Shown here: positions 4,524-20,708 of the stretch, piece after piece
Position numbering within the stretch: position 1 is the first letter of the stretch
Layout: the number at the start of each line of letters is the position of its first letter
NCBI GenBank assembly: GCA_016867695.1
Contig: VGIY01000001.1
Coordinates: 1-29,485 of the forward strand
From: Candidatus Eiseniibacteriota bacterium
GTDB taxonomy: Bacteria; Eisenbacteria; RBG-16-71-46; CAIMUX01; WJJG01
Direction: 5' to 3'
Length of the DNA stretch: 29,485 nucleotides
Program-made: the position numbers and the translations under genes
The notes under the pieces: generated by a model
What the model was told of the DNA's origin: nothing
Seen by the model: only the letters and a program-made list of their open reading frames with translations
Database searches by the model: none

Positions 4524-7500
4524 CTACTGGATCGTGATCGTCTCGCGCAGCGTGATGCCGCCCCGTCCCGGGTCGTTGTCGATCACCGTCAGCACGCAGG
4601 TGGTGTCGCTCGCCGGGGCATGGAACAGCCCGCTGGCCACGCCCCAGGTGTCGGTCGTCGCCGCGGGAGTGACCGTGCCTCCCCCGCTGGCGCTCATGCC
4701 GAGCACGTGTCCGCCGAGCGGGTTGCCGTAGCGGTCCTGGATCAGCACCTCGAACGGCAGGACTCCGCCTCGGGCGACCTGCTTCTCGATCTCGATGCGC
4801 GACTTGCCCCGGAAGGCGGGCCCGGTCAGGAAGTCGACCTCGAGCGCGGCGCTGTGGCCGCCCGCCAGCCCCGCGGAGGCAGTGACGACGGCCGTGCCGC
4901 CGATCCCGTCGTCGGGCACGCTGTAGGAGTAGTCGCGGCCGAGCCGCTCGCTGCGCAGCGTCGCCCGCGCCAGACTGCCGTAGACGCCGTCGGCCGTCAT
5001 CGCCGACTCGTCGATCTCGCCGAGCGTCGTCTGGAACTCCACGAGCGTTCCCGCCAGCACGAAGTTGTCGTTGACGTCGAGCACTTCCACAGTCAGGCGC
5101 AGCTCCTCGTCCCCGTCGGCCATGATCGCCACCGGCGGCCGCGGCGCGACGAAGGCGACCGAGACGGGCGGGCCGGAGGAGATCAGCCCCGTAGTTCCCA
5201 GGACTCCCCCGCCCGAGGTCGAGGCGCTGATGACGACGCGCCCGTCGAGGCGCGGCAGGCCGCTGAAGTAGGTCCCTCGCGCCATGCCCCCCTGGGTCAC
5301 GGCGCTGCCCAGACTTCCGTCCCAGCCGCGCACGATCCCCTCGTCGCAGGTGAGGTAGATCGTCGTCCCCTCGGCCACCGGGTTGTTGTGCAGATCGGAG
5401 ACGATCGCCAGCACGTCCGCCTCGGCGCCGACCACGTCCCAGCCGCGGATGTTGCGCGGGCTCGCTCCCAGCGAGATGTAGGCCGGCGGCCCGGCGGCGA
5501 TGCTGACCTGCGCCGACTTGCCCGCCCAGGCCCCGGCGCTCGCCTCGACCAGCACCGTGCCCGAGGCCGTGCCGCTGCTGAGCACGACCGAGGCGCGGCT
5601 CGTGTCATCCGTGTAGCGGGTCACCGGCCCCCAGCCGTTGCCGTCCAGCCCCTCGCCCCCGCCGGGGCCGGCGACGATCTCGAAGGTCACTTCCCGGCCG
5701 CGTCCGACGGGGTGGTTCTCGGCGTCGTAGCAGAGGGCGTAGAAGCCGCACTGCTCGGTCGCGCCCGTGCCGGCGACGCCGATCTCAGTGCGCGTCGGGA
5801 TCAGCTCCATGCGCGCGATCGGCCCCGGATCGGGCGGCGTCGCCGGCTCGCGTAGCTGGATCGTCGTCTGCCCGGAGACCCCGCCCGCCGCGGCGCAGGT
5901 GATCGTGGCGTAGGCGGCGGTCGTGTCCTCGAGGAGGGCGATGTAGAAGGCGGTGACCATGCCCCCCGCCGTGGGCGCCGTGGCGGCGCCGCCCGATGTG
6001 TAGATGAAGCCGCGGTCGGTGGTGAAGTAGGCCACGGTGCCGTCGACGACCGGGTTGTGGAACTCGTCGTCGATCACGCCGAAGATCCTCACGGTGTCGC
6101 CCGGAGCGCAGTCGCCCCGCTCGGGCCAGCAGTGCACGCCCGCCGGGGGGCCGGCGGAAATGCCCAGGTAGAGGTCGCGCTGCGTCTCCCCGGCGGAGAC
6201 GCGCAGGTGCAGCGGCCCGGATCGCGTGCCGCTGTTGAGGACGGCCACGGCGACGCCGGCGGTGTTGGTCTCCACCGTGATTGGGCTGGCGCCGCCGGCG
6301 AAACCCTCGCCCCCCTGCGGGCCGTGGAGGATCTCGAAGCGGACGGGCAGCCCCGCCGGAGCGGGAAGACCGGGGCGCAGCGAGCAGGTGGCGGTGAGCA
6401 CCGACCGGTCGGCATCGGCCTGGCCGGCCACGCGCAGCTCCGCCGGCTCGGCCGCGACGCTGAGCACGCGGACGGTCTCCCCCGCCATCGGGATCGCCAC
6501 CGACGTGCGCCCCTCGACGCCGTTGGGCTCGGCGCGGGCGACGATCTGGGCGACGCCGTCGCCGCCCGGCTCCGGGCTGAGCGAGTAGTAGAGCCCGATC
6601 GCCAGCCCGCTTGCCGTCGGGCTCGAGGCCTGGCCCCCCTCGCCGGTGATCAGGCCCTCGTCGACCTCGAAGAAGATGCGCGTGCCGTCCTTGACCGGAT
6701 TGTTGTAGGCGTCGCGGACCGTCGCCCGGATCGCCGTCTGCTGCCAGGAGGCGAGGTCGGCGGCGTCGGGATGGACGCTGATCGCCGCCGGCGGGCCCAC
6801 CGAGACGGCCAGGTCGAGGGCGCGCTCGAGCCCGCCTCCGGAAACGCGCACGCGGGCCAGCCCGGGCAGCGTCCCGGCGCGCAGCACCGCCGTGGCCAGT
6901 CCGTCGGCGCCGGTCAGGACCGTGGCCCGCGCCGCGCCGGAGGGCTCGAAGACCTCGCCCCCCCCGGGGCCGGCCTCGATCTCGAAGAGCAGCGGCAGGC
7001 CGGCGGGAGCGGGACTGCCGTCGAGCTGCAGACAGACGGCGCTGAGGGTCGCGCGGTCGGTCCCGCCCGCGCCGAGCAGGCAGATCTCGACAGGTTCGGC
7101 CGCCAGGTCCATGGCCAGCAGAGCGGGCAGCGGCAGGACCTCGATCGGCACGGCCAGCGACCAGTCGTCGGCGGCCAGCGTCACCCAGGCCGTGCCGGGC
7201 GCGGCGGGCGCGCGATAGAGCGCCGTGACGGTCCCCTCCGCGTCGGCATGGGCCTGCGGCGGGACCGTCCCGGCGGAGGCCGACAGGGCGATCGACTTGC
7301 CCGGGATCGGGCTGCCGTTGACGTCGAGCAGGCGCGCGGAGAGCGTCGCCTCGCTCAGCTCGTTGGCGTAGACGGGACCGGCGGACCAGGCCCACTCGGC
7401 GCGGTCGACGCGCGGGAGCGGCAGCAGGCGCACGGGGAGCGCGCTGCCCCCGTCGCGGGTCGACGCGTAGATCGTCGCCGTGCCCGCCGCGCGGCCGGCG

Positions 7501-8609
7501 GTGAACTGCGCCACGGCTCTGCCGTCGGTTCCGGTCGTCGCCGAGGAGGTGATCGTGCCCATGACGTCCCAGACCGAGTTGCCGTTCGTGTCGGTGAAGG
7601 GATCCGTGCCCGGAGTGTAGAAGCCGTCGCCGTCGGCGTCGGTGAAGGGCTCCCCGGCGGTGAAGCGGACGAGCTTGCCCGCCAGCGGCGCGCCCTGGCG
7701 ATCCTGCACCTCGGCGGTCACGGCGACGCCGGAGAAGCCGTCGGCCCAGACCTCGACCGGCAGCGCGGCCAGGCGCAGCGCCGCGCCGACGGCGTGCAGG
7801 TCGAGGGCGAAGTCGACCGACACCGTGTCGACGGTCGCCTTGACGAAGACGCTTCCGGGCAGGATCCCGGCCGTGTAGATCGCCGTGGCGGTCCCGCTCG
7901 GACCCGTGGTCACCGGGCTCGTCACGCTGCCGTTGGCGGTCCACTCGCCGTCGGCGTCGCCGTCGATCAGAATCCGGTCGCCGTCGCTGAAGTCGCCGCT
8001 GCCGTCGAGGTCCTCGAAGAGCTCTCCGGCCGCCAGGCGCACGACGGCGCTCGCCGCGGGCGCTCCGTCGCGCGCCACCTGGATCGTCAGCTCCAGCGTG
8101 CTCTGCCCGTCCGCGGGCAGGCTCGTCTCCGGCGCGGTGACGGCGATCGCGGTGCCGGCGCCGCTCACCCCCGACGTCAGGTAGAGCGAGAGGTAGGCGA
8201 CGGCGCTGCCGGCGCCCGCCTTCAGGTCGACGCGCCCGCTGCTCGTCGGATGGCTGCGGAAGGTCGTCCGCGCCCAGCCCGCGTCGTCGGTCAGTGCCGC
8301 CGCCGGATCGAACGCGCCGGCGGCGCCCGCGCCCGCCTGCTCGAAGGGGGCGCCCGACTCGCCGAAGCGCACGGTGGCCGCGGCCACCGCCTCCCCGCGC
8401 GCGTTGACCACGCGCGCCGCCAGCTGCGCCTCGCCCCCGGGCCCCAGCAGCGCCGGGGTCGAGACGAACGACTCCAGCCGCAGCGAGCCGCCGGATGCGG
8501 AAGAGGTCGACTTCTGCTCCTCCGAACAGCCGATCGCGGCGAGGACCGCGATCAGGACGACAGCCGGCAGGCGAAGGAGCGTGTGCCGCAGAGCGCGCCG
8601 ATCGAGCAC
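4524..8609 (-). CDS. Large lipoprotein with tandem bacterial Ig-like (Big_1/invasin-type) domains
   Basis: Track ORF 4524..8630; the start is more likely GTG 8609 (AGGAGG 6 nt upstream). Lipobox LAAIG|C, repeated Big_1-like units (ADG..., V.D..GNP, TD..G.A...Y.AG...G), ~1360 aa. Confidence 0.85.
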   Translation of the reverse strand: MLDRRALRHTLLRLPAVVLIAVLAAIGCSEEQKSTSSASGGSLRLESFVSTPALLGPGGEAQLAARVVNARGEAVAAATVRFGESGAPFEQAGAGAAGAFDPAAALTDDAGWARTTFRSHPTSSGRVDLKAGAGSAVAYLSLYLTSGVSGAGTAIAVTAPETSLPADGQSTLELTIQVARDGAPAASAVVRLAAGELFEDLDGSGDFSDGDRILIDGDADGEWTANGSVTSPVTTGPSGTATAIYTAGILPGSVFVKATVDTVSVDFALDLHAVGAALRLAALPVEVWADGFSGVAVTAEVQDRQGAPLAGKLVRFTAGEPFTDADGDGFYTPGTDPFTDTNGNSVWDVMGTITSSATTGTDGRAVAQFTAGRAAGTATIYASTRDGGSALPVRLLPLPRVDRAEWAWSAGPVYANELSEATLSARLLDVNGSPIPGKSIALSASAGTVPPQAHADAEGTVTALYRAPAAPGTAWVTLAADDWSLAVPIEVLPLPALLAMDLAAEPVEICLLGAGGTDRATLSAVCLQLDGSPAPAGLPLLFEIEAGPGGGEVFEPSGAARATVLTGADGLATAVLRAGTLPGLARVRVSGGGLERALDLAVSVGPPAAISVHPDAADLASWQQTAIRATVRDAYNNPVKDGTRIFFEVDEGLITGEGGQASSPTASGLAIGLYYSLSPEPGGDGVAQIVARAEPNGVEGRTSVAIPMAGETVRVLSVAAEPAELRVAGQADADRSVLTATCSLRPGLPAPAGLPVRFEILHGPQGGEGFAGGASPITVETNTAGVAVAVLNSGTRSGPLHLRVSAGETQRDLYLGISAGPPAGVHCWPERGDCAPGDTVRIFGVIDDEFHNPVVDGTVAYFTTDRGFIYTSGGAATAPTAGGMVTAFYIALLEDTTAAYATITCAAAGGVSGQTTIQLREPATPPDPGPIARMELIPTRTEIGVAGTGATEQCGFYALCYDAENHPVGRGREVTFEIVAGPGGGEGLDGNGWGPVTRYTDDTSRASVVLSSGTASGTVLVEASAGAWAGKSAQVSIAAGPPAYISLGASPRNIRGWDVVGAEADVLAIVSDLHNNPVAEGTTIYLTCDEGIVRGWDGSLGSAVTQGGMARGTYFSGLPRLDGRVVISASTSGGGVLGTTGLISSGPPVSVAFVAPRPPVAIMADGDEELRLTVEVLDVNDNFVLAGTLVEFQTTLGEIDESAMTADGVYGSLARATLRSERLGRDYSYSVPDDGIGGTAVVTASAGLAGGHSAALEVDFLTGPAFRGKSRIEIEKQVARGGVLPFEVLIQDRYGNPLGGHVLGMSASGGGTVTPAATTDTWGVASGLFHAPASDTTCVLTVIDNDPGRGGITLRETITIQ

Positions 8610-8809
8610 GGTGGACCTCCTGGGATGCAAGGTGCCGCCCGCCGCGATCCTGGACCGCGGGCGGACAGGTCAGGTGTCTCACCGGAAGTATCGACGCGCG
8701 GCCGCCGGGTCTTGACCTTCGCGGCGGCTCGCCGAGAGTGCGCATGGCGAATGGCAACCTGCTCCGGGAAAGGCGGTTGCGGGCGACGGGGGATAGCCGC
8801 GGCCGGCGC

Positions 8810-9179: not shown

Positions 9180-10310
9180 TCAGCTCTCGATCATCTCGAC
9201 GTTGGCGCGCGGGACGACCGCCTCCTCCCCCGCCTCGAGCCGCACCTTGAGGATGCGCACCTTGGCGCCCGATTCGACCTCGATGAGCGCCGGCGGCAGT
9301 TCGGTCACCGTGCCCAGCCGCCCGAAGTAGGGGGAGCGGATGACGCGCACGGGGCTGCCGACGCGCAGGCCCTCGGCCATGTCGAAGGCCTTCTGCTGGC
9401 GCGTGCCCTGCTCCTGCGCGGTCATCGAGATGACCAGTTCGGGGCGCATGACGCCGGCGCGGATCTGGGTCGCGCCGTTGACCGAGCAGTAGCGCCCGTC
9501 GTGCTGCCCCAGCAGAGTGAAAGTGCGCTCGGCCATGGCCATGCGGCCGAAGCCCTCGGTGACGACGAGCGTCGTGCCGAGCTGCTCGCTGCCGGTGATC
9601 GCCACCCCCAGGTCGTAGCCGAGGAAGCGCTGCAGATCGGCGGCGTCGAAGCCGCCGACCACTACGGCGCGCGCCCCCCGCTGCACCGCCACGCGCAGGA
9701 CGCGCTCGGTGACCAGGGATCCGCCGACGACCACTTTGCCGGCCACATCCCCGGCGAAGTGCTTCTCGGCCAGCTCCTCGTCGGGCGAGCTGACGGCCAT
9801 GTGCACGTCGCCGTGGGTCTCGCCGCCGATGCCGAAAATGCCCTGGATGAAGGCCCCCTCGGTGCGCACGACGACACCCTGGCGCGGGATGACCTCGACC
9901 ACCTCGCCGCTGATGTAGGCGTCGATCTGCACCGGGATCGGCGGCTCGCGGATGATCACCTGCCCGGTGACCGTCGAGATGCTCTCGATGGTCCCGTCGC
10001 AGGGCGAGAGGCAGTGCGACTTGAAGAGGCCGAAGAAGCTCTTGGCCGTGGCGATCGCCTCGCCCTTGGAGACCGCCTCGCCCTCCTTCTTGAGCATGTA
10101 GTCGAGCAGGTCCTGCTGGTGCTGTCCGAGGATGCTCGCCGCCTTGATCGGCTGGACGTTGCCGGGCAAATCGGTGCGCGCCACGATCTGGTCGGCCGAG
10201 ACCTGGTCACCCTGAGCGACCAGCACCTCGCCGGCCAGCGGCAGGCGCCGCTCCTTGAGGATCGTCGTCCAGGGCGTCACCCTCAGCCCGGGGGTGTAGG
10301 CATGCGCCAC
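9180..10310 (-). CDS. Uncharacterised protein with barrel-sandwich-hybrid-like segments and a C-terminal KOW/SH3-like domain
   Basis: Track ORF 9180..10352; the start is more likely GTG 10310 (GAGGAGGAG RBS), giving MAHAYTPGL... of 376 aa. Clean high-GC coding pattern. Domain calls are by eye. Confidence 0.75.
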   Translation of the reverse strand: MAHAYTPGLRVTPWTTILKERRLPLAGEVLVAQGDQVSADQIVARTDLPGNVQPIKAASILGQHQQDLLDYMLKKEGEAVSKGEAIATAKSFFGLFKSHCLSPCDGTIESISTVTGQVIIREPPIPVQIDAYISGEVVEVIPRQGVVVRTEGAFIQGIFGIGGETHGDVHMAVSSPDEELAEKHFAGDVAGKVVVGGSLVTERVLRVAVQRGARAVVVGGFDAADLQRFLGYDLGVAITGSEQLGTTLVVTEGFGRMAMAERTFTLLGQHDGRYCSVNGATQIRAGVMRPELVISMTAQEQGTRQQKAFDMAEGLRVGSPVRVIRSPYFGRLGTVTELPPALIEVESGAKVRILKVRLEAGEEAVVPRANVEMIES

Positions 10311-10365
10311 GGTTCCACTCCTCCTCGTCGACCCTTGCGGTCGGGTTGTCATCTCGGCCGCCGGC

Positions 10366-12213
10366 TCAGGCCAGCGTGCGCGGGTCCTTGGGATAGAGAT
10401 CCATCGCCAGCGCCCACTCGGCCAGCTTGGCGATGCGCTGCTCGGGCGCCGCCGGCAGCAGGAACGGGCGCCCCCGCCCGTCGAAGATCAGCCCGACCAC
10501 GCCCCCCTGGACCGTGCGGCGCAGCGCCTTGCCCCGCCCCGCGCCGAGGTCGAAGCCGCCGGCCGGCTCGACCGTGATCTCCGCCTTCTCGCCCACGCCG
10601 AGGGCGACGCGGCGCAGCCCCCCGAAGGGCACCTCGAACTCCTCGGCGGGCCGACCGTCGGCGAAGGCGACGCGCGCCTTCATGCAGCGCGCCCCCTCCT
10701 TGGCCAGCCCCACCGCCGCCACGGCGGTGCCGAGCCGGATCAGGCAGTCGTGGACGAAGACCTCGGTGGCCGCCTTCTTCGCCGACTCGTTGTCGACCTC
10801 GGCCAACACGCCGAGTTGGGGCATCATGAAGATCGAGTCGACGGCCAGCTCGGTGACGCCCTCGGGCACGAAGGCGTCGAGCATCATCATCGCCCCCTGC
10901 ACGCGGCGCGGCGCGTGGGAGAGCGCTCCGCCGCTGCCGACCAGCAGGTCGAGCTTCATCAGGTCGATCAGCGTCTCGCCGGTCGAGGTCTGCTCGAAGG
11001 TGTCCGAGATCGTGCGCTCCTGCTGCACGCCCTTCAGCCCCACGGCCAGCGACTTGTGCTGTTCGAAGGCGAGCCGCAGCGCCTCGCGCGCCAGCGCCTG
11101 CTCGATGACCAGCTCCTGCAGCGACTGGGGGATCGTCGTCGGGCGGATCATCTTGTTCTTGATCCGGTTGCGGATCTCGTCGTCGGCCATGTTGAAGGGG
11201 ACCCAGCGCATCACGTTGGGCAGGGTCGCCTCGGCGAGGACGTTGGAGACCGAGTAGCTCATCCCCAGGTTGGCGCTGACGGTGCGGTTGAAGACATCCT
11301 CGAAGACGCTGAAGACGTCCGTCGTCGCCCCGCCGATGTCGACCCCGATGACGGTGATCCCCTCCCGCTTGGCGATCGTGTGGATGATCGAGCCGACCGC
11401 CCCGGGGGTCGGCATGACCGGAATCGGCGTCCACTCCATCAGCTTCTTGTAGCCGGGCGCGTGGGCCATCACATGCTCCATGAACAGGTCATGGATGGCG
11501 TGGCGCGCGGGCATCAGGTTCTCCCGCTCCATCGTCGGGCGGATGTTGTCGGTGATCATCAGCGCGGTCTTCTCCGCCAGCCGCTCGCGGATCAGCTCGC
11601 GCGCCTCCTTGTTGCCGGCGTAGATGACCGGCATCTGGTAGGAGGCGCCGAGGCGCGCCTTGGGGTCGGCCGCGGCGACGATCTCGGCCAGCTCGACGAC
11701 GTGGGTGGTCGTGCCCCCGTCGATGCCCCCGGAGAGCAGGACCATGTCCGGGCGCAGGTCGCGGATGCGGCGGATCTTCTCGTGCGGCAGCCGCCCGTCG
11801 TTGCTGGCGATGATGTCCATGACGATCGCCCCGGCGCCCAGGGCGGCCCGCTCGGCGCTCTCGCCGGTCATCGACTTGACCACGCCGGTGACCATCATCT
11901 GCAGCCCCCCCCCGGCGCTGGAGGTGGAGACGTAGATGTCCACCCCCTCCCGGCCCTCCTGGGGGGTGATGATCCGCTCGCCGTCGAGCAGCTTGCGGCC
12001 GGCCAGCTCCTCGACCTCCATGACCGCGTTGAGCACCCCGCGGGTGACGTCCTCGAAGGGCGCCTCCACGGTCGTCGGCGCCTCTCCGCGCACCACCAGG
12101 CGATAGCGCCCGTCGCGCAGCTCGATGAGGATCGCCTTGGTCGTCGTCGAACCGCAGTCGGTGGCCAGCACCGAGCGGATGTTCATCGCCTTCAAGTCCT
12201 GGGCAGCACTCAT
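10366..12213 (-). CDS. GlmL/MutL (glutamate mutase L)-like ASKHA-fold ATPase with a C-terminal extension
   Basis: True start ATG 12213 overlaps the upstream stop (ATGA); 615 aa. LATDCGSTTTK (phosphate 1), GEAPTTVE, SSAGGGL, GGIDGG, PTPGAV, VDIGGATTDVFS (phosphate 2), RTVSANLGMSYS, GSGGALSH are typical of the GlmL family. The first ~313 aa of the track ORF are an out-of-frame read of the upstream genes. Confidence 0.85.
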   Translation of the reverse strand: MSAAQDLKAMNIRSVLATDCGSTTTKAILIELRDGRYRLVVRGEAPTTVEAPFEDVTRGVLNAVMEVEELAGRKLLDGERIITPQEGREGVDIYVSTSSAGGGLQMMVTGVVKSMTGESAERAALGAGAIVMDIIASNDGRLPHEKIRRIRDLRPDMVLLSGGIDGGTTTHVVELAEIVAAADPKARLGASYQMPVIYAGNKEARELIRERLAEKTALMITDNIRPTMERENLMPARHAIHDLFMEHVMAHAPGYKKLMEWTPIPVMPTPGAVGSIIHTIAKREGITVIGVDIGGATTDVFSVFEDVFNRTVSANLGMSYSVSNVLAEATLPNVMRWVPFNMADDEIRNRIKNKMIRPTTIPQSLQELVIEQALAREALRLAFEQHKSLAVGLKGVQQERTISDTFEQTSTGETLIDLMKLDLLVGSGGALSHAPRRVQGAMMMLDAFVPEGVTELAVDSIFMMPQLGVLAEVDNESAKKAATEVFVHDCLIRLGTAVAAVGLAKEGARCMKARVAFADGRPAEEFEVPFGGLRRVALGVGEKAEITVEPAGGFDLGAGRGKALRRTVQGGVVGLIFDGRGRPFLLPAAPEQRIAKLAEWALAMDLYPKDPRTLA

Positions 12214-12680
12214 GCCTTCTCCCCGCTCCCTCCCGGCGGCTCCGCCCCCGCGGCGGCCCCGCGCCGTGCCTTGTCCTCGGCCTGGCGGCGCTTGCGCTCC
12301 TGCTTCTCCCGCTTCTCGCGCAGGCGCAGCTCCTCGTCCAGCGCCTCGACGCGCTGGATCAGCCGTTCGAAGTTCTTCCGGTCCTCCATCAGATGGGCGA
12401 AGCGCCGGTAGCTGCCCACCGAGAGGAAGGCCTCGACGAACGGCTGCAGGAAAACGAGCGCCTGGCTGCCGACGAAGGAGAGCGGCTTGACCGACTCGAG
12501 GAAGAAGACCGCCGCCACCCCCAGGCGCATGCGCACGAGCCGCCCGGCGACGGCGTCGAGCAGCTGCTCGTCGCTCATCTCGGCCGGCGGCGCCGGCTCG
12601 CCCGGCCCGCCCGCTCCGGCGAGGCGGCCGCCCGGCGGTGCGGCCTCGAGGGGGTTGGCGGATCGCCTCCAGAAGGACAT
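12210..12680 (-). CDS. Hypothetical protein with a hydrophobic/amphipathic core and a charged coiled-coil-like tail
   Basis: 156 aa. GGAG RBS; ATG 3 nt after the previous stop; its stop overlaps the GlmL-like ATG. Core AVFFLESVKPLSFVGSQALVFLQPFVEAF. Confidence 0.8.
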   Translation of the reverse strand: MSFWRRSANPLEAAPPGGRLAGAGGPGEPAPPAEMSDEQLLDAVAGRLVRMRLGVAAVFFLESVKPLSFVGSQALVFLQPFVEAFLSVGSYRRFAHLMEDRKNFERLIQRVEALDEELRLREKREKQERKRRQAEDKARRGAAAGAEPPGGSGEKA

Positions 12681-12683
12681 GCC

Positions 12684-13202
12684 CTACTCCCCCGCTCCGG
12701 CGGCGGGCCGCGCGCCGCCCGCCTCGCTCTTGAGACCGTGGAACTCGACCCGCTCCGGGTCGAGGCGCTCCCGGAGCCAGCTCCGCAGCTCCTCCGCGCC
12801 CGGCCCGCCCCGGGCGGGCAGGCGCAGGCGGATCCCCCGGTAGCTCTCCAGCCAATGGCGGCGCGCGAAGGGGCTGAGCGTCACCCCGTAGCCGTCGCAC
12901 CAGGCGCTGCGGAAGGCGTCCCAGGAGCGCTCGGCGCGCGAGAAGGGCTTGCGCACGATGATCCCCGCCGCGCGCAGCTCGTAGGTCGTCGGCAGGAAGA
13001 AGCTCTCCAGCGACAGGAAGAGGACGAGGAAGGCGAAGACCCCCCAGTAGGCGCCGCCCATCCAGAACCCGGTCAGGACCGCCATGGCCAGCATGAGCAG
13101 CGTCACGCCGGCGGCCACGCCGCGGCGCTCGGCCGCCGGGTGCGTCCGCCAATCGAGGCCGGCGGGCTCTTCCCGGGCCTGTTGGGCGCTCTCGGGCCTC
13201 AT
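12684..13202 (-). CDS. Hypothetical membrane protein (two TM helices plus a beta-rich cytoplasmic domain, possibly PH-like)
   Basis: 172 aa. ATG overlaps the gcvPB stop (ATGA). Hydrophobic segments VAAGVTLLMLAMAVLTGFW and YWGVFAFLVLFLSL, then FFLPTTYEL...VTLSPF...YRGIRL. Confidence 0.8.
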   Translation of the reverse strand: MRPESAQQAREEPAGLDWRTHPAAERRGVAAGVTLLMLAMAVLTGFWMGGAYWGVFAFLVLFLSLESFFLPTTYELRAAGIIVRKPFSRAERSWDAFRSAWCDGYGVTLSPFARRHWLESYRGIRLRLPARGGPGAEELRSWLRERLDPERVEFHGLKSEAGGARPAAGAGE

Positions 13203-14728
13203 CCCTCGCTCGCCCCCTCGTCGAACCGGCAGCGGACCTTCAACCGCCGGGCCGCCTCCGCCTCGTCGAGCCGCCCGACGCAGGTGCAGCTCGGCGCGGC
13301 GCGCACGACCGCGGGCCGCTCGCGGACCTCGGCGGCGATCGCCCGCATGGCGGCGGCGAAGGCGTCCAGGCCGGCGCGGGTCTCCGTCTCGGTCGGCTCG
13401 ATCATCAGCGCGTCGGGCACGATCAGCGGGAAGGAGACGGTCGGCGAGTGGAACCCGTAGTCGAGGAGCCGCTTGGCGACGTCGATGTTGCGCACCTCGT
13501 GCTTGCGCGTCCAGGCGGCGCTGGAGACGAACTCGTGCATGCAGGGGCCCGGCTTGGCCGCGGGGAAGTCCTCGGCCACCCGGCGCATGAGGTAGTTGGC
13601 GTTGACCAGCGCCGCGCGGCTGGCCGCGGCCAGCCCCTCGCCCCCCATCCTGCGGATGTAGGCGTAGGCGCGCAGGATCACCCCGACATTGCCGCCGAAC
13701 GGGTGCAGCCTGCCGACGCTCTCCGGCCGCTCCTCGACCAGCCGGAAGCGATCGCCGTCGCGCTCGATCACCGGCACCGGCAGAAAGGGGGCCAGCTTCG
13801 CCTTCACGCCGACCGGCCCCGCCCCCGGGCCGCCGCCGCCGTGCGGCGTGGAGAAGGTCTTGTGCAGGTTCATGTGCACCATGTCGACGCCCATGTCCCC
13901 CGGCCGCGACAAGCCCATCAGCGCGTTCAGGTTGGCGCCGTCCATGTAGACCAGGCCGTCGACGGCGTGGATGCGCGCGGCGATCTCGTCGATCTCGGTC
14001 TCGAAGATCCCCAGCGTGTTCGGATTGGTGATCATGATCCCGGCGGTCGAGTTGTCGATGGCCGCGGCCAGCGCCTGGAGATCGACCCGGCCGTCGGCGC
14101 GCGAGGGGATCTGCCGCGGCTCGAAGCCGGCGAAGACGACGCTGGCGGGATTGGTGCCGTGGGCCGAGTCGGGGATGAGCACCGTGCGCTTGTCCGCCCC
14201 CCGGCTCCGCAGGTAGGCGCGCAGCAGCTTCATCCCAAGCAGCTCGCCCTGCGCGCCCGCGGCGGGCTGCAGGCTGACGGCGTCCATGCCGACGATCTCG
14301 GCCAGCGCCCGCTCGGTCGACCAGAGCAGCTCGAGCAGACCCTGGAGGAGCGCCTCGGGCGCCTCGGGGTGGAGCCCGGCGAAGCCGGGATGGCGCGCCA
14401 GCTCCTCGTTGACCTTCGGGTTGTACTTCATCGTGCAGGAGCCGAGCGGGTAGAGGCTGCGGTCCACATGGTGGTTGAAGAGCGAGAGGGCGACGTAGTG
14501 GCGCGCGACCTCCGGCTCGGTCACCTCGGGCAGGCGCGGCGGCCGGCGGCGGAGCAGCGGCCCGGGAATGAGGGCCGCCGGATCGGCCGCGGGCACATCC
14601 AGCGCGGGGAAGCGGTAGCCGCGGTGCCCGCTGACGCTGCGCTCGAAGATCAGGCGCACGGGACCCGTGGCGCTGCAGGCCGAGCAGGACGAGGCGCCCC
14701 GCTCGGCCGCGGTGGACTGGGCGTGCAT
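13199..14728 (-). CDS. gcvPB: Glycine dehydrogenase (decarboxylating) subunit 2, P protein beta
   Basis: Start ATG 14728 with GGAGGG RBS; 509 aa. LIFERS, YPLGSCTMKYNP, QPAAGAQGE, SAHGTNPAS, PLP-lysine motif NLHKTFSTPHGGGGPG, MIEPTETE. Confidence 0.96.
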   Translation of the reverse strand: MHAQSTAAERGASSCSACSATGPVRLIFERSVSGHRGYRFPALDVPAADPAALIPGPLLRRRPPRLPEVTEPEVARHYVALSLFNHHVDRSLYPLGSCTMKYNPKVNEELARHPGFAGLHPEAPEALLQGLLELLWSTERALAEIVGMDAVSLQPAAGAQGELLGMKLLRAYLRSRGADKRTVLIPDSAHGTNPASVVFAGFEPRQIPSRADGRVDLQALAAAIDNSTAGIMITNPNTLGIFETEIDEIAARIHAVDGLVYMDGANLNALMGLSRPGDMGVDMVHMNLHKTFSTPHGGGGPGAGPVGVKAKLAPFLPVPVIERDGDRFRLVEERPESVGRLHPFGGNVGVILRAYAYIRRMGGEGLAAASRAALVNANYLMRRVAEDFPAAKPGPCMHEFVSSAAWTRKHEVRNIDVAKRLLDYGFHSPTVSFPLIVPDALMIEPTETETRAGLDAFAAAMRAIAAEVRERPAVVRAAPSCTCVGRLDEAEAARRLKVRCRFDEGASEG

Positions 14729-14748
14729 GCTCGGGATGCCCTCCGCTG

Positions 14749-16116
14749 CTAGGCCAGCGCGCGCGCCAGGGCGTCGCGCAGGCGGTCGATCTCTTCCCGG
14801 CTGCGTCGCTCGGTCACGGCGACGAGCAGCTCGTGCGTGCGCTCGCGGTGGGCCGCGTAGCGCGCCAGCGGGATCCCCGCCAGGATCCGCTCCTCGGCGT
14901 AGACCCGCGCCACGACCTCCTCGGCCGGGCGGGGCAGGCGCAGGACGAACTCGCGGAAGAAGGGCCCCTCGTGCGCCCGGCCGACGCCGGGAAGCGCCAG
15001 CAGCCGTTCCAGCGCGTAGTGGGAGCGCGCCAGGCACTGCTCGGCGGCCTGGCGGAGCCCGGCGGGGCCGACGAGCGACAGGTAGATCGTCGCCCGCAGG
15101 GCGATGAGCGCGCTGTTCGTGCAGATGTTCGAGGTCGCCTTCTCGCGGCGGATGTGCTGCTCGCGCGTCTGCAGCGTGAGCGTGAAGCCGCGCCGCCCGG
15201 CGGCGTCGCTCGCCTCGGCCGCCAGCCGCCCCGGCAGCCTGCGCACCCAGGCCTGCCGCGTGGCGAAGTAGCCGGCCGTCGGGCCGCCCCCCTGGGGCGC
15301 GATCCCGAGCGGCTGCACGTCGCCGACGACCGTCTCGGCGCCCAGCTCTCCGGGCGGGACGAGCAGCCCCAGCGAGAGCGGATCGGCGGAGACGACGAGG
15401 TGGCCGCGGCGCGTCCCCTGGCCGGGCAGCAGCCCCCCCAGGCGGTCGAGCGGCTCGAGCAGGCCGAAGAAGTTGGGCTGCTGGACGAGCAGCGCCGCCG
15501 GGGCGGGCCCCGCCGCCGCCGCCCGGACGACCGCCTGGGGATCGATCCGCCCCAGCGGCGCCGGCAGCGTCTCGACGGCGATCCCGGTGCCGTCCAGCGT
15601 CGTCGCCACGACCTCGCGGATGCGCGGGCCCACGCTCTCGGCCACCAGCACGCGCCGCTGCCCGGTCGCCGCGGCGGCCAGCAGCAGCGCCTCGGCCGCC
15701 GCCGAGGCGCCCTCGTACATCGAGGCGTTGGCGACGTCCAGGCCGGTCAGCTCGCAGATCATCGTCTGGAATTCGAAGATCCCGGCGAGGGTCCCCTGGG
15801 CCACCTCGGGCTGGTAGGGCGTGTAGGCGGTCATGAACTCGGGGCGCGAGACGAGCGCGTCGATCAAGGCCGGCACGGCGTGGTCGTAGAGCCCGCCGCC
15901 GAGGAAGGAGGGCGAGTCGGCGGGCGCGTAGTTGCCCGCGGACAGGCGCTGAAACAGCCGGCGCAGCTCCTCCTCGCCGAGCGCCTGCGGAAGCTCCAGC
16001 GGGCGCCCCAGGCGCAGCCGCTGCGGAATCTGCTCGGCCAGCGCCGCGAACCCTCCGGCGCCGACCTCGGCGAGCATGCGCTCGCCCTCCTCGGGCGTGT
16101 GTCCGATGTAGCTCAC
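14749..16116 (-). CDS. gcvPA: Glycine dehydrogenase (decarboxylating) subunit 1, P protein alpha
   Basis: GTG 16116 overlaps the gcvH stop (GTGA); 455 aa. FLGGGLYDH, TAYTPYQPEVAQG, ANASMYEGA, LQTREQHIRREKATSNICTN. Confidence 0.96.
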   Translation of the reverse strand: MSYIGHTPEEGERMLAEVGAGGFAALAEQIPQRLRLGRPLELPQALGEEELRRLFQRLSAGNYAPADSPSFLGGGLYDHAVPALIDALVSRPEFMTAYTPYQPEVAQGTLAGIFEFQTMICELTGLDVANASMYEGASAAAEALLLAAAATGQRRVLVAESVGPRIREVVATTLDGTGIAVETLPAPLGRIDPQAVVRAAAAGPAPAALLVQQPNFFGLLEPLDRLGGLLPGQGTRRGHLVVSADPLSLGLLVPPGELGAETVVGDVQPLGIAPQGGGPTAGYFATRQAWVRRLPGRLAAEASDAAGRRGFTLTLQTREQHIRREKATSNICTNSALIALRATIYLSLVGPAGLRQAAEQCLARSHYALERLLALPGVGRAHEGPFFREFVLRLPRPAEEVVARVYAEERILAGIPLARYAAHRERTHELLVAVTERRSREEIDRLRDALARALA

Positions 16117-16511
16117 TCGGCCGCCCCCTCGAGCTCGCTGAGCAGCTTGCGGTAGTCGGCCGGCGAGAGCAGCCGGTCGAGCTCGCCCGCGTCGCCCACG
16201 GCGAGGCGCACCATCCAGCCATCGTCGAAGGCGGAGCGGTTGACCAGCGCCGGGTCGTCGGCCAGCGCCTCGTTGACCGCCCGCACCTCGCCGCTCAGCG
16301 GCGCGTAGAGGTCGGCCACCGCCTTGACCGCCTCGACCGAGCCGAAGGGCTCGCCCTGGCGCAGCGCGCCGCCCGCGGCGGGCAGCTCGACGTAGACGAT
16401 GTCGCTCAACTGCTCCTGGGCGTAGTCGGTGATGCCGATCACCGCCTCGCCGCCCTCGACGCGGACCCACTCGTGGTCTCTCGAGTAGCGCAGCCCGTCG
16501 CGCACCTCCAT
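16113..16511 (-). CDS. gcvH: Glycine cleavage system H protein
   Basis: Start ATG 16511 with GGAGGT RBS; 132 aa. YSRDHEWV, IGITDYAQ, DIVYVELP, lipoyl-lysine motif GSVEAVKAV, N.ALADDP.LVN, GWM. Confidence 0.96.
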   Translation of the reverse strand: MEVRDGLRYSRDHEWVRVEGGEAVIGITDYAQEQLSDIVYVELPAAGGALRQGEPFGSVEAVKAVADLYAPLSGEVRAVNEALADDPALVNRSAFDDGWMVRLAVGDAGELDRLLSPADYRKLLSELEGAAE

Positions 16512-16540
16512 CCCGGCACCTCCCTCGCCCGGCTCCGGCG

Positions 16541-17650
16541 CTAGGCGCGCCGCACCGAGCCCTGCTTGTAGAACGGCCGCTCCACCACCCGGGCGGCCAG
16601 CCGGGCGCCGCGGGCGTCGATCTCGATCGCCGTCCCGACCTCCTGCAGGTCGGGCGTGACGAAGCCCATGCCCATGCCCCGGTCGAGCGAGGGGCAGTAA
16701 CCGCCGCTGGTGACGACGCCCGCCTCGCGCCCCCCGGCCAGGATCGGGTGGCCGTGGCGGGGAAGCCTCTTGCCCTCGACCTCGAAGCCGACGAGCGCGC
16801 GCGTCAGGCCCGCCTCCTGCCGGCGCTGCAGCGCCTCGCGGCCGATGAAGTCGTGGTCCTTCATCTTGACCACCCAGCGCAGGCCCGCCTCGAGCGGCGT
16901 GATGTCGGGCCCGAGCTCGTTGCCGTAGAGGGCGTAGTTGACCTCCATGCGCAGGCTGTCGCGCGCCCCCAGCCCGATCGGCTCGACGCCCTCCGCGGCG
17001 CCCCACTCCAGCAGGCGCTCCCAGAGCCCGGGGGCCGCCGCCGCCGGGACGTAGATCTCGAATCCGTCCTCGCCGGTGTAGCCGTTGCGGCTGATCAGGA
17101 GCTCTTCGCCCTCCCAGCGCAGGCGCGTGTAGCGGTAGTAGCCGACCTCGCGCACCGCGTCGGCGAGGGGGGAGCGCAACACCGCCTCGGCGCGCGGCCC
17201 CTGCAGCGCGATCTGCGCCAAGCGCTCGGTGGCGTCCTCGAACTCGACGCCCGCCGGTTTGTGGGCGGCGATCCAGTCGCTCACCTTGGCGGCGTTGGCG
17301 GCGTTGGCGACGATCAGCGCCCCCTCGTCGAGCCGGTAGACGGTCAGGTCGTCGATCATGCCCCCCTGCTCGTGGCAGAGGGCGCTGTAGAGCAGCTGGC
17401 CGGGGGCGAGCTTCTCCAGGTTGTTGGTGATCAACCGGTTGGCGTAGGCGAGCGCGCCGGGGCCGCGCAGGAAGAAGCGGCCCATGTGGGCGACGTCGAA
17501 CATCCCGGCCGCGCGGCGGACCAGCAGGTGCTCGTGGATCACCCCGCCCGGGAACTGGACCGGCATTTCCCAGCCGGCGAAGGGCACGAGGCGCCCCCCC
17601 CGGTCGCGGTGGAATGCGTGAAACGGCGTGCGGCGCAACTCCGCGGCCAT
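16541..17650 (-). CDS. gcvT: Glycine cleavage system aminomethyltransferase T
   Basis: Start ATG 17650 with a purine-rich RBS; 369 aa. RTPF, FAGWEMPVQF, FDVAHMG, GYTGEDGFEI, GLGARDSLRME, YGNEL. Confidence 0.96.
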   Translation of the reverse strand: MAAELRRTPFHAFHRDRGGRLVPFAGWEMPVQFPGGVIHEHLLVRRAAGMFDVAHMGRFFLRGPGALAYANRLITNNLEKLAPGQLLYSALCHEQGGMIDDLTVYRLDEGALIVANAANAAKVSDWIAAHKPAGVEFEDATERLAQIALQGPRAEAVLRSPLADAVREVGYYRYTRLRWEGEELLISRNGYTGEDGFEIYVPAAAAPGLWERLLEWGAAEGVEPIGLGARDSLRMEVNYALYGNELGPDITPLEAGLRWVVKMKDHDFIGREALQRRQEAGLTRALVGFEVEGKRLPRHGHPILAGGREAGVVTSGGYCPSLDRGMGMGFVTPDLQEVGTAIEIDARGARLAARVVERPFYKQGSVRRA

Positions 17651-17690
17651 CGCTCCCCCTCTCCCTCGCCTCTCGAGCGTCAAGCGGGCA

Positions 17691-17719
17691 AGGCTAGCAC
17701 GCGGCCCGGGGAGCGTCAA
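17691..17719 (-). promoter_or_regulatory. Putative sigma70 promoter for the gcv operon
   Basis: Minus strand TTGACG (17719-17714), 17-nt spacer, TG-extended TAGCCT (17696-17691). Confidence 0.65.
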
Positions 17720-17722
17720 CGC

Positions 17723-20581
<2,859 letters not shown>

Positions 20582-20589
20582 GGCGCGGG

Positions 20590-20598
20590 AGGATAGCA
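20590..20598 (-). promoter_or_regulatory. Extended -10 element upstream of uvrA (possible leaderless transcript)
   Basis: Minus strand TGCTATCCT ends 8 nt before ATG 20581. No SD and no -35 match. Confidence 0.4.
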
Positions 20599-20708
20599 CG
20601 GGGGGCGGCCCAGCGCCGCCCCGTCAGTCGCTCTCGTGGCCCTGTCCGGCGCGCCGGGCCGGCCCTCCGCCCCGCCGACGGACTGGCGATAGCGGGCCCG
20701 GGCCGGCC

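Follow-up and report, generated by a model that had tools for sequence, protein, structure and literature searches.

Three adjacent genes of Candidatus Eisenbacteria are, on balance, likely to encode the cytoplasmic half of a widespread and undescribed system. The genes lie in a stretch of 29,485 nucleotides (nt), here called the window, from a metagenome-assembled genome that is 86.8% complete. Their products are a small protein of 156 amino acids (aa), an ATPase of 615 aa and a partner protein of 376 aa. The other half would be a cassette of four inner-membrane proteins, one of which belongs to the family DUF6754. Together with a gene for a 172-aa membrane protein, the three genes make up a four-gene module that stands directly behind the glycine cleavage gene gcvPB.

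9180..10310, minus strand: gene of the 376-aa partner, GTG start (AlphaFold2 model, natural fusions, predicted complex)
10366..12213, minus strand: gene of the 615-aa ASKHA ATPase (Pfam MutL, PF13941)
12210..12680, minus strand: gene of the 156-aa small protein (orthologues beside the ATPase in other phyla)
12684..13202, minus strand: gene of the 172-aa membrane protein (hydropathy, Atlas model match)

Evidence for such a system can be found in the way its parts travel together. The ATPase, the partner, the small protein and the DUF6754 cassette recur side by side, and they co-occur phyletically. An initial annotation of the window had offered, as its second option, an independent machine of actin fold that had been inserted into the operon. 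Of its proposals this one fits best, although only half of the system had been seen.

A system so conserved and widespread, for which neither a function nor a structure nor a paper is on record, marks a considerable gap in knowledge. The partner, the small protein and three of the four cassette proteins are covered by no paper, solved structure or named family, and relatives in AlphaFold DB clusters are unnamed or generically named. In databases the ATPase carries the label "glutamate mutase MutL", which leads metabolic reconstructions of uncultured phyla astray. To our knowledge, ASKHA ATPases power no transporter or envelope machine.

An actin-fold ATPase and its partner

The 615-aa protein is a member of the Pfam family MutL (PF13941), with an E-value of 7e-124 and 414.5 bits against a gathering cut-off of 27. 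Two proteins of this family are Or-4, of ornithine degradation, and GlmL/MutL, the accessory protein of glutamate mutase. With these the 615-aa protein shares the ASKHA core and the motifs DxGSTxTK, DIGGATTD and GSGGxLSHAP; it differs in having about 130 extra C-terminal residues and in scoring below all three NCBIfam cut-offs. It reaches 227.7 bits against 475 for GlmL (NF040745), 210.2 against 600 for Or-4 (NF040744) and 160.7 against 204 for the glmL_fam model (TIGR01319). An ATPase of actin fold, as the initial annotation had read it, is borne out.

Across 20 sequences from several phyla, the phosphate-1 (D19-K26), phosphate-2 (D292-D299) and adenosine (S427-P435) motifs are invariant. The AlphaFold2 (AF2) model, with a mean confidence (pLDDT) of 83, contains the ASKHA core, which is the fold of actin, Hsp70 and sugar kinases. 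A flavodoxin/receiver-like insert is placed at about 101-252, and an extra beta domain with a helix at the C-terminus (about 491-604). This last domain is not classifiable because the whole-protein structure search is dominated by the ASKHA core. Between phyla the ATPase is 66-70% identical, against only 37-50% for gcvT and gcvPA.

The best fold matches of the model include FtsA (Z 14.9), ATP-dependent activators of CoA reductases and dehydratases, PilM (Z 12.9), EutJ and the diol-dehydratase reactivase DdrA (Z 11.9); acetone carboxylase and sugar kinases are also among the matches. One explanation would be that the ATPase is a membrane-tethered scaffold like PilM or FtsA, possibly polymerising, which organises the cassette proteins without motor action. 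Both of those actin-fold proteins attach to membrane machines by way of a small bitopic membrane protein (PilN in the case of PilM), and the ATPase is likewise constantly accompanied by a small conserved protein. The Z-scores, however, mirror the common ASKHA core, with CoA-dehydratase/reductase activators and kinases scoring alike, and PF13941 is closer to the GlmL/hydantoinase branch. Beyond the generic core there is no sequence-family relation to PilM or FtsA, and no pilus or division genes are found nearby. A scaffold is therefore considered decidedly unlikely.

The family name suggests another alternative, a classical reactivase that acts in trans on a cobalamin (B12) mutase encoded elsewhere. 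It could draw on the partial agreement with the GlmL and Or-4 models and on three B12-binding-domain genes in the genome, all of them on contigs other than that of the module. Against it stand the scores below the curated cut-offs and the lack of any match to the glutamate mutase E subunit (Met_asp_mut_E, PF06368) in the genome, at its completeness of 86.8%. Mutase genes lie near neither the main nor the paralogous copy of the ATPase, whose neighbours are gcv genes and the partner, and the ATPase co-occurs with DUF6754 instead. GlmL operons, for their part, contain neither the 376-aa partner nor the membrane cassette. Tracking with a B12 mutase, which the initial annotation had named as a possible refutation of its proposal, is not seen for the module, and a B12 reactivase is very improbable.

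The model of the 376-aa protein (pLDDT 90.8) has three domains: an N-terminal barrel-sandwich hybrid, a central swivelling beta/beta/alpha domain (about 152-296) and a C-terminal KOW/SH3-like domain (about 315-376). The hybrid and KOW domains had been recognised in the initial annotation, and the swivelling domain had been overlooked. Residues 49-123 of the hybrid resemble the N-domain of NqrA/RnfC (Z 7.8), with weak Pfam matches to RnfC_N and NQRA_N. This domain is all that is held in common, as Nqr/Rnf membrane subunits and flavin or Fe-S motifs are absent here.

The C-terminus matches the KOW domain of NusG (Z 8.8; root-mean-square deviation of about 1.1 A over 51 residues against NusG/Spt5 KOW domains). 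The protein has no NGN domain and so does not belong to NusG/Spt5; only its KOW-like C-terminus matches. A sequence search of the PDB likewise returned matches at the level of the KOW domain only.

Structural matches (VIA) of the central domain are Enzyme I (Z 9.8), RraA (9.3), rifampin phosphotransferase (9.2), the C-domain of pyruvate kinase (8.9) and the small subunit of aconitase X (8.5). The swivelling fold is thus that of the mobile domain of phosphoenolpyruvate (PEP)-utilising enzymes, of RraA and of aconitase X. The TEGFG strand-loop of the partner is similar to the TDxGG strand-loop ahead of the catalytic histidine in PEP-utilising enzymes.

Two carrier functions can be set aside. Among 38 diverse members of the partner family, neither the invariant nor the 90%-conserved columns include a lysine or a histidine. 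This excludes a biotinyl or lipoyl carrier, which would need a conserved lysine for modification; the Pfam Biotin_lipoyl match also falls below its cut-off. It equally excludes a phosphohistidine carrier, as the fold of the mobile PEP-utiliser domain is present (Z 9.8) and its catalytic histidine is not conserved.

The residues that are invariant in the partner are concentrated in the swivelling domain (Q156, G157, G160, E164, T251-G255 and G279-P290). Some of them, namely Q156, E164, E252, Q282, R284 and R289, could form an active site. The pair might then be a soluble, ATP-dependent enzyme for a small molecule, similar to kinases, carboxylases or hydantoinases, and the cassette merely its transporter. 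Weak Pfam matches to Hydantoinase_A over the phosphate-2 region of the ATPase, the acetone carboxylase and sugar kinases among its fold matches, and the catalytic role of the mobile domain in PEP-utilising enzymes all agree with this. Yet no conserved histidine or lysine is available as a phospho- or cofactor carrier, and 66-70% identity from phylum to phylum is more than is usual in a peripheral enzyme of metabolism. The presence of one pair and many diverged cassettes also suits a shared energiser better. A soluble enzyme is unlikely, while deserving some weight.

When clustered at 50%, the partner family counts 2446 representatives. Clusters of similar appearance are found in Chloroflexota, Planctomycetota, Bacillota and phyla of the Fibrobacterota-Chlorobiota-Bacteroidota (FCB) group.

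A predicted obligate heterodimer of the ATPase and the partner is supported. The two genes are adjacent in nearly all of 92 loci, and two representatives of the 50% clusters are natural fusions of both proteins, of 995 and 1003 aa (P0149 and P0234). The predicted complex scores 0.79, compared with 0.00 for the best control; in calibration, 51 of 78 solved complexes attained the mark for this score, as did 2 of 108 mismatched pairs.

On the ATPase, the predicted interface takes in A296 (phosphate-2 motif) and H433/P435 (adenosine motif); on the partner, it takes in F159, G253-G255, T281, R284 and the KOW domain. These positions are more conserved than the remainder of each protein, both in the ATPase (0.79 against 0.66; permutation p 0.003) and in the partner (0.64 against 0.41; p < 5e-5), in a test that ignores differences between surface and core.

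Adjacency of the pair is not absolute. In G041, a genome of 1.5 Mb with low G+C that contains locus L083, the ATPase gene (C3:89504-91312) lies behind gcvPB and the small protein gene, and the partner gene is on another contig (C2:90096-91217).

A paralogous ATPase is likewise trailed by a paralogous partner. The diverged second ATPase, with about 45% identity, is found in this genome (G000) at C217:3412-4974 (L101) and in the relatives G013 (C12, L110) and G005 (C181, L111). In the two relatives the gene that follows encodes a diverged partner (24-32% identity), which aligns only to about residue 295 and may lack the KOW domain.

Interrupted copies of the main ATPase gene occur as well. In G025 (C1:593298-595126) it matches in several pieces with TGA stops, and seven DUF6754 copies are still present; in G036 (C180:22152-23957) it contains one TAG. 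These interruptions may be assembly errors or decay.

The third member, the 156-aa protein, is a conserved soluble or peripheral component of the system. A disordered N-terminus is followed by a conserved amphipathic core, PAIxFLESxKPLxFxGSQA, and by a charged helix; no hydrophobic segment exceeds the Kyte-Doolittle threshold. Orthologues of 78-119 aa adjoin the ATPase in Marinimicrobia, in a TA06-like phylum and in distant loci, and the amphipathic core is common to them.

The membrane cassette and a proposed shared motor

The cassette consists of the DUF6754 protein, two polytopic proteins and one bitopic protein. The three proteins other than DUF6754 have no Pfam family. An Atlas search with DUF6754 recovered its own family only. 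No match to PADLOC defence-system profiles was obtained except one at chance level (E 0.004).

The genes of the ATPase-partner pair and those of the cassette adjoin in three different orders, one in Marinimicrobia, one in other Eisenbacteria and one in distant loci. In loci of the Marinimicrobia/Fidelibacterota type, a yegS-like kinase gene and cdsA are followed by the ATPase, the partner, the small protein, DUF6754 and the three other membrane genes. Most other Eisenbacteria-type loci start with gcv and continue with the 172-aa gene, the small protein, the ATPase, the partner, DUF6754 and these three genes. One distant locus, at 35% identity, begins with the small protein, DUF6754 and the three genes and ends with the ATPase and the partner. 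Finally, a locus with a fused ATPase-partner gene reads cdsA, small protein, fusion, DUF6754 and more.

In the family to which the window belongs, the cassettes are located elsewhere, in this genome on other contigs. The genome has seven DUF6754 matches, six of full length and one cut at a contig end, and cassette genes follow each of them.

Seven DUF6754 cassettes: genome G000, contigs C147, C584, C394, C67, C71, C41 and C47 (loci L094-L100, L102-L104)

The seven copies are 50-69% identical to one another. In several of their DUF6754 proteins, an N-terminal signal peptide is present together with about 150-250 aa of extracytoplasmic sequence that resembles fibronectin type III (FN3) domains; this extension is missing from the DUF6754 protein of Marinimicrobia. 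Around three detached cassettes of this genome, the neighbours are unrelated housekeeping genes without a pattern. In loci L035 and L044, a phosphoglycerate-mutase-like gene lies downstream of the cassette, and in the loci examined no lipoate ligase gene was seen to flank the module.

The distribution of the two halves can be compared between genomes. The ATPase and DUF6754 are both present in 40 of 41 Eisenbacteria genomes and both missing from the one other. In a second phylum (61 genomes), 53 genomes have both, 3 have neither and 3 have only one. None of the 14 control genomes contains DUF6754. The number of DUF6754 copies varies from 1 to 9 per Eisenbacteria genome and from 1 to 5 in the second phylum, and the main ATPase is single.

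Because the genome combines seven diverged cassettes with one main ATPase-partner pair, a shared motor is proposed, in which the one pair probably serves several cassettes. An analogy can be found in energy-coupling factor (ECF) transporters and in shared ATPases of ATP-binding cassette (ABC) systems, where a single energising module works with several diverged and scattered membrane modules. There is no homology to either, the ATPase here having an actin fold and not a P-loop, and the analogy is one of genetic layout, not of transport.

A mechanism can be sketched by comparison with glycerol and diol dehydratase reactivases. These are built from an ATPase domain of actin fold, a swivelling domain and a beta subunit that resembles flavodoxin. 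On ATP hydrolysis the swivelling domain moves, and the beta subunit is freed from it, a movement by which a partner is released or swapped (PMC7674605).

All three elements of DdrAB/GdrAB are present here, differently arranged. The partner provides the swivelling domain in trans, along with its hybrid and KOW domains, and the flavodoxin-like module has become part of the ATPase as an insert. No cobalamin enzyme is involved, and the two kinds of swivelling domain would be alike in fold class.

Since the same three elements occur in the reactivases, ATP binding or hydrolysis would most likely drive a domain movement in the ATPase-partner pair. In the predicted complex, the invariant loops of the partner (TEGFG and GATQxR) and its KOW domain pack by the phosphate-2 and adenosine motifs of the ATPase. 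The movement would be passed to the membrane cassette, either directly or through the small protein, and the cassette would move or remodel a substrate.

If so, the system would possibly, though this is more tentative than the pairing of the two halves, represent a membrane machine of a new class, with an actin/Hsp70-fold ATPase as its energiser in place of a P-loop or rotary ATPase. One conserved heterodimer with a reactivase-like swivel would drive several interchangeable four-protein cassettes, some with periplasmic FN3-like domains, and this motor would be co-expressed with the glycine cleavage system in several FCB-group phyla. Neighbourhood hints diverge as to the task, pointing to glycine cleavage in two phyla and to cdsA and a lipid kinase in another. 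The predicted heterodimer with its conserved interface, the fusions and the pattern of one motor with many cassettes offer concrete, testable constructs and mutants.

Several points weigh against a two-part membrane system of this kind. Support for its components is computational throughout, and it is gene neighbourhood and co-occurrence that tie the soluble pair to the membrane proteins. A single program, run without alignments, predicted the interface, and the conservation of this interface could partly reflect burial, which the test leaves out of account. An actin fold also suits a scaffold or a soluble enzyme, so that "motor" is not an exclusive reading. A PDB sequence search with the 615-aa ATPase found no solved structure that is detectably similar, and a literature search found no paper on the ATPase family, on DUF6754 or on the system. 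Finally, adjacency to gcvPB with very short junctions in two phyla exceeds usual chance synteny and could mean a functional tie to glycine catabolism.

Linkage to glycine cleavage genes

The module stands at the end of a row of glycine cleavage genes, themselves preceded by uvrA.

17723-20599, minus strand: uvrA, upstream of gcvT (Pfam)
16541-17719, minus strand: gcvT (Pfam GCV_T)
14749..17719, minus strand: gcvT, gcvH and gcvPA, context outside the module (Pfam GCV_T, GCV_H, GDC-P)
13199..14760 (start approximate), minus strand: gcvPB, glycine dehydrogenase subunit 2, outside the module (Pfam GcvP2_C and GDC-P)

Read directly from the sequence, the layout is as the initial annotation gave it. 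The TGA of gcvPB (13201-13199) overlaps the ATG of the 172-aa gene (13202-13200) in an ATGA; after 3 nt (12681-12683) the 156-aa gene begins, whose stop overlaps the start of the 615-aa gene in a second ATGA. A spacer of 55 nt (10311-10365) separates the 615-aa and 376-aa genes, and the strong ribosome-binding site reported before the latter is a GGAGGAG 8 nt ahead of the GTG start. A scan for consensus promoters and terminators found sites no commoner than in shuffled sequences, such a scan being weak for a non-model phylum with 74% G+C. From this layout, co-transcription of gcvPB and the module genes is plausible.

The linkage is not unique to this genome, as the initial annotation had allowed that it might be. 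gcvPB is directly ahead of the module in 37 of the 38 Eisenbacteria-type loci with enough upstream sequence, and ahead of the small protein and ATPase genes in 17 of 30 loci of the TA06-like phylum; the junctions are overlaps or gaps of less than about 100 nt. Outside Eisenbacteria, cdsA is upstream in 23 of 31 loci, and gcvPB in 2 of the 22 that have enough upstream sequence. The linkage is therefore real and old, yet not general.

A glycine cleavage role for the module was the main proposal of the initial annotation, which suggested that it remodels or reactivates a component of the glycine cleavage system or tethers the system to the membrane. In a broader form, the cassettes might take up glycine or peptides, or release a product from the cell. 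The 37 of 38 and 17 of 30 loci with gcvPB directly ahead, and the tight junctions, speak in its favour, and one cassette of this genome adjoins a gene for 5-formyltetrahydrofolate cyclo-ligase.

Other evidence speaks against it. The constant companion of the module is the DUF6754 cassette, and in loci of the Marinimicrobia/Fidelibacterota type cdsA takes the place of gcv. In the relative G035, of the same class and 94% complete, gcvPA/PB are retained and neither the ATPase nor DUF6754 is present, and GcvP is found in 10 of the 14 control genomes that are devoid of DUF6754. The partner has no conserved lysine for lipoylation. In Eisenbacteria-type loci uvrA is as conserved in the array as the gcv genes, so that synteny alone is weak evidence for a functional tie. 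A search of the literature on glycine cleavage in Eisenbacteria found nothing. A role in glycine catabolism is accordingly regarded as unlikely, and the specific claim of remodelling, reactivation or tethering finds no support here.

Lipoylation provided a related candidate. The module could have served as the lipoylator of GcvH if Eisenbacteria were without lipoylation enzymes, and this was rejected because LplA/LipB-type genes (PF21948) are found in 28 of 31 genomes. This genome has two of them, on contigs without ATPase or DUF6754. The choice of model matters: PF03099 gives a single match per genome, of the BirA type only, and used alone it misses the LplA/LipB-type genes, so that lipoylation enzymes would wrongly seem missing.

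With cdsA in the upstream position elsewhere, glycine cleavage without the module in G035, uvrA equally syntenic and lipoate ligase genes at other sites, the linkage is read as inherited co-expression. The position behind gcvPB is an inherited arrangement in Eisenbacteria and the TA06-like phylum, in which the genes are probably co-transcribed. It is best read as co-regulation and not as an accessory role in glycine cleavage.

The first gene of the module follows a narrower distribution than the others. The 172-aa protein is the membrane protein reported by the initial annotation, and hydropathy confirms two hydrophobic transmembrane helices at about 28-65. A putative bacterial PH-like domain follows the helices: the Atlas model matches a cluster named "PH domain-containing" with template modelling scores of 0.78/0.89, and no Pfam bPH family passes its cut-off. 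The family has 54 clusters of relatives, and all named ones are from Eisenbacteria. The expectation that the four genes co-occur in other genomes is therefore borne out for the small protein, the ATPase and the 376-aa protein, which stand together in other phyla, but not for the 172-aa gene, which is beside the module in Eisenbacteria-type loci only.

A variant is seen in a complete Eiseniibacteriota chromosome (L051, 5467-7445), where the 172-aa gene directly follows gcvT, and gcvH and gcvP are not at that position.

Other genes of the window

Every gene identified in the window (1-29485) is on the minus strand, and the G+C content is 71-78%. Lake-water metagenomes carry DNA of the window, and the runs listed include none of RNA. 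The gene order is as follows.

First part, minus strand: Omp85-like protein, fusion of heptosyltransferase and haloacid dehalogenase (HAD) domains, ExbB, two ExbD, TonB, TolC-like outer membrane efflux protein
Second part, minus strand: uvrA, gcvTHPAPB, the four-gene module, large Ig-like lipoprotein
Third part, minus strand: HU, ribonuclease R/II-like protein, gene without assignment, FadL-like gene

Between the end of uvrA and the longest gcvT reading frame there are 3 nt (17719-17723), and the adjacency of the two genes is kept across Eisenbacteria-type loci.

Downstream of the module, positions 4527-8669 (minus strand) encode a product of about 1370 aa in which Big_1/invasin D3 repeats and the lipobox AAIGC are found. 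A lipoprotein gene of this kind follows the 376-aa gene in the family of the window and in some related loci (30-49% identity). It occupies the slot that is held by the DUF6754 cassette in other Eisenbacteria.

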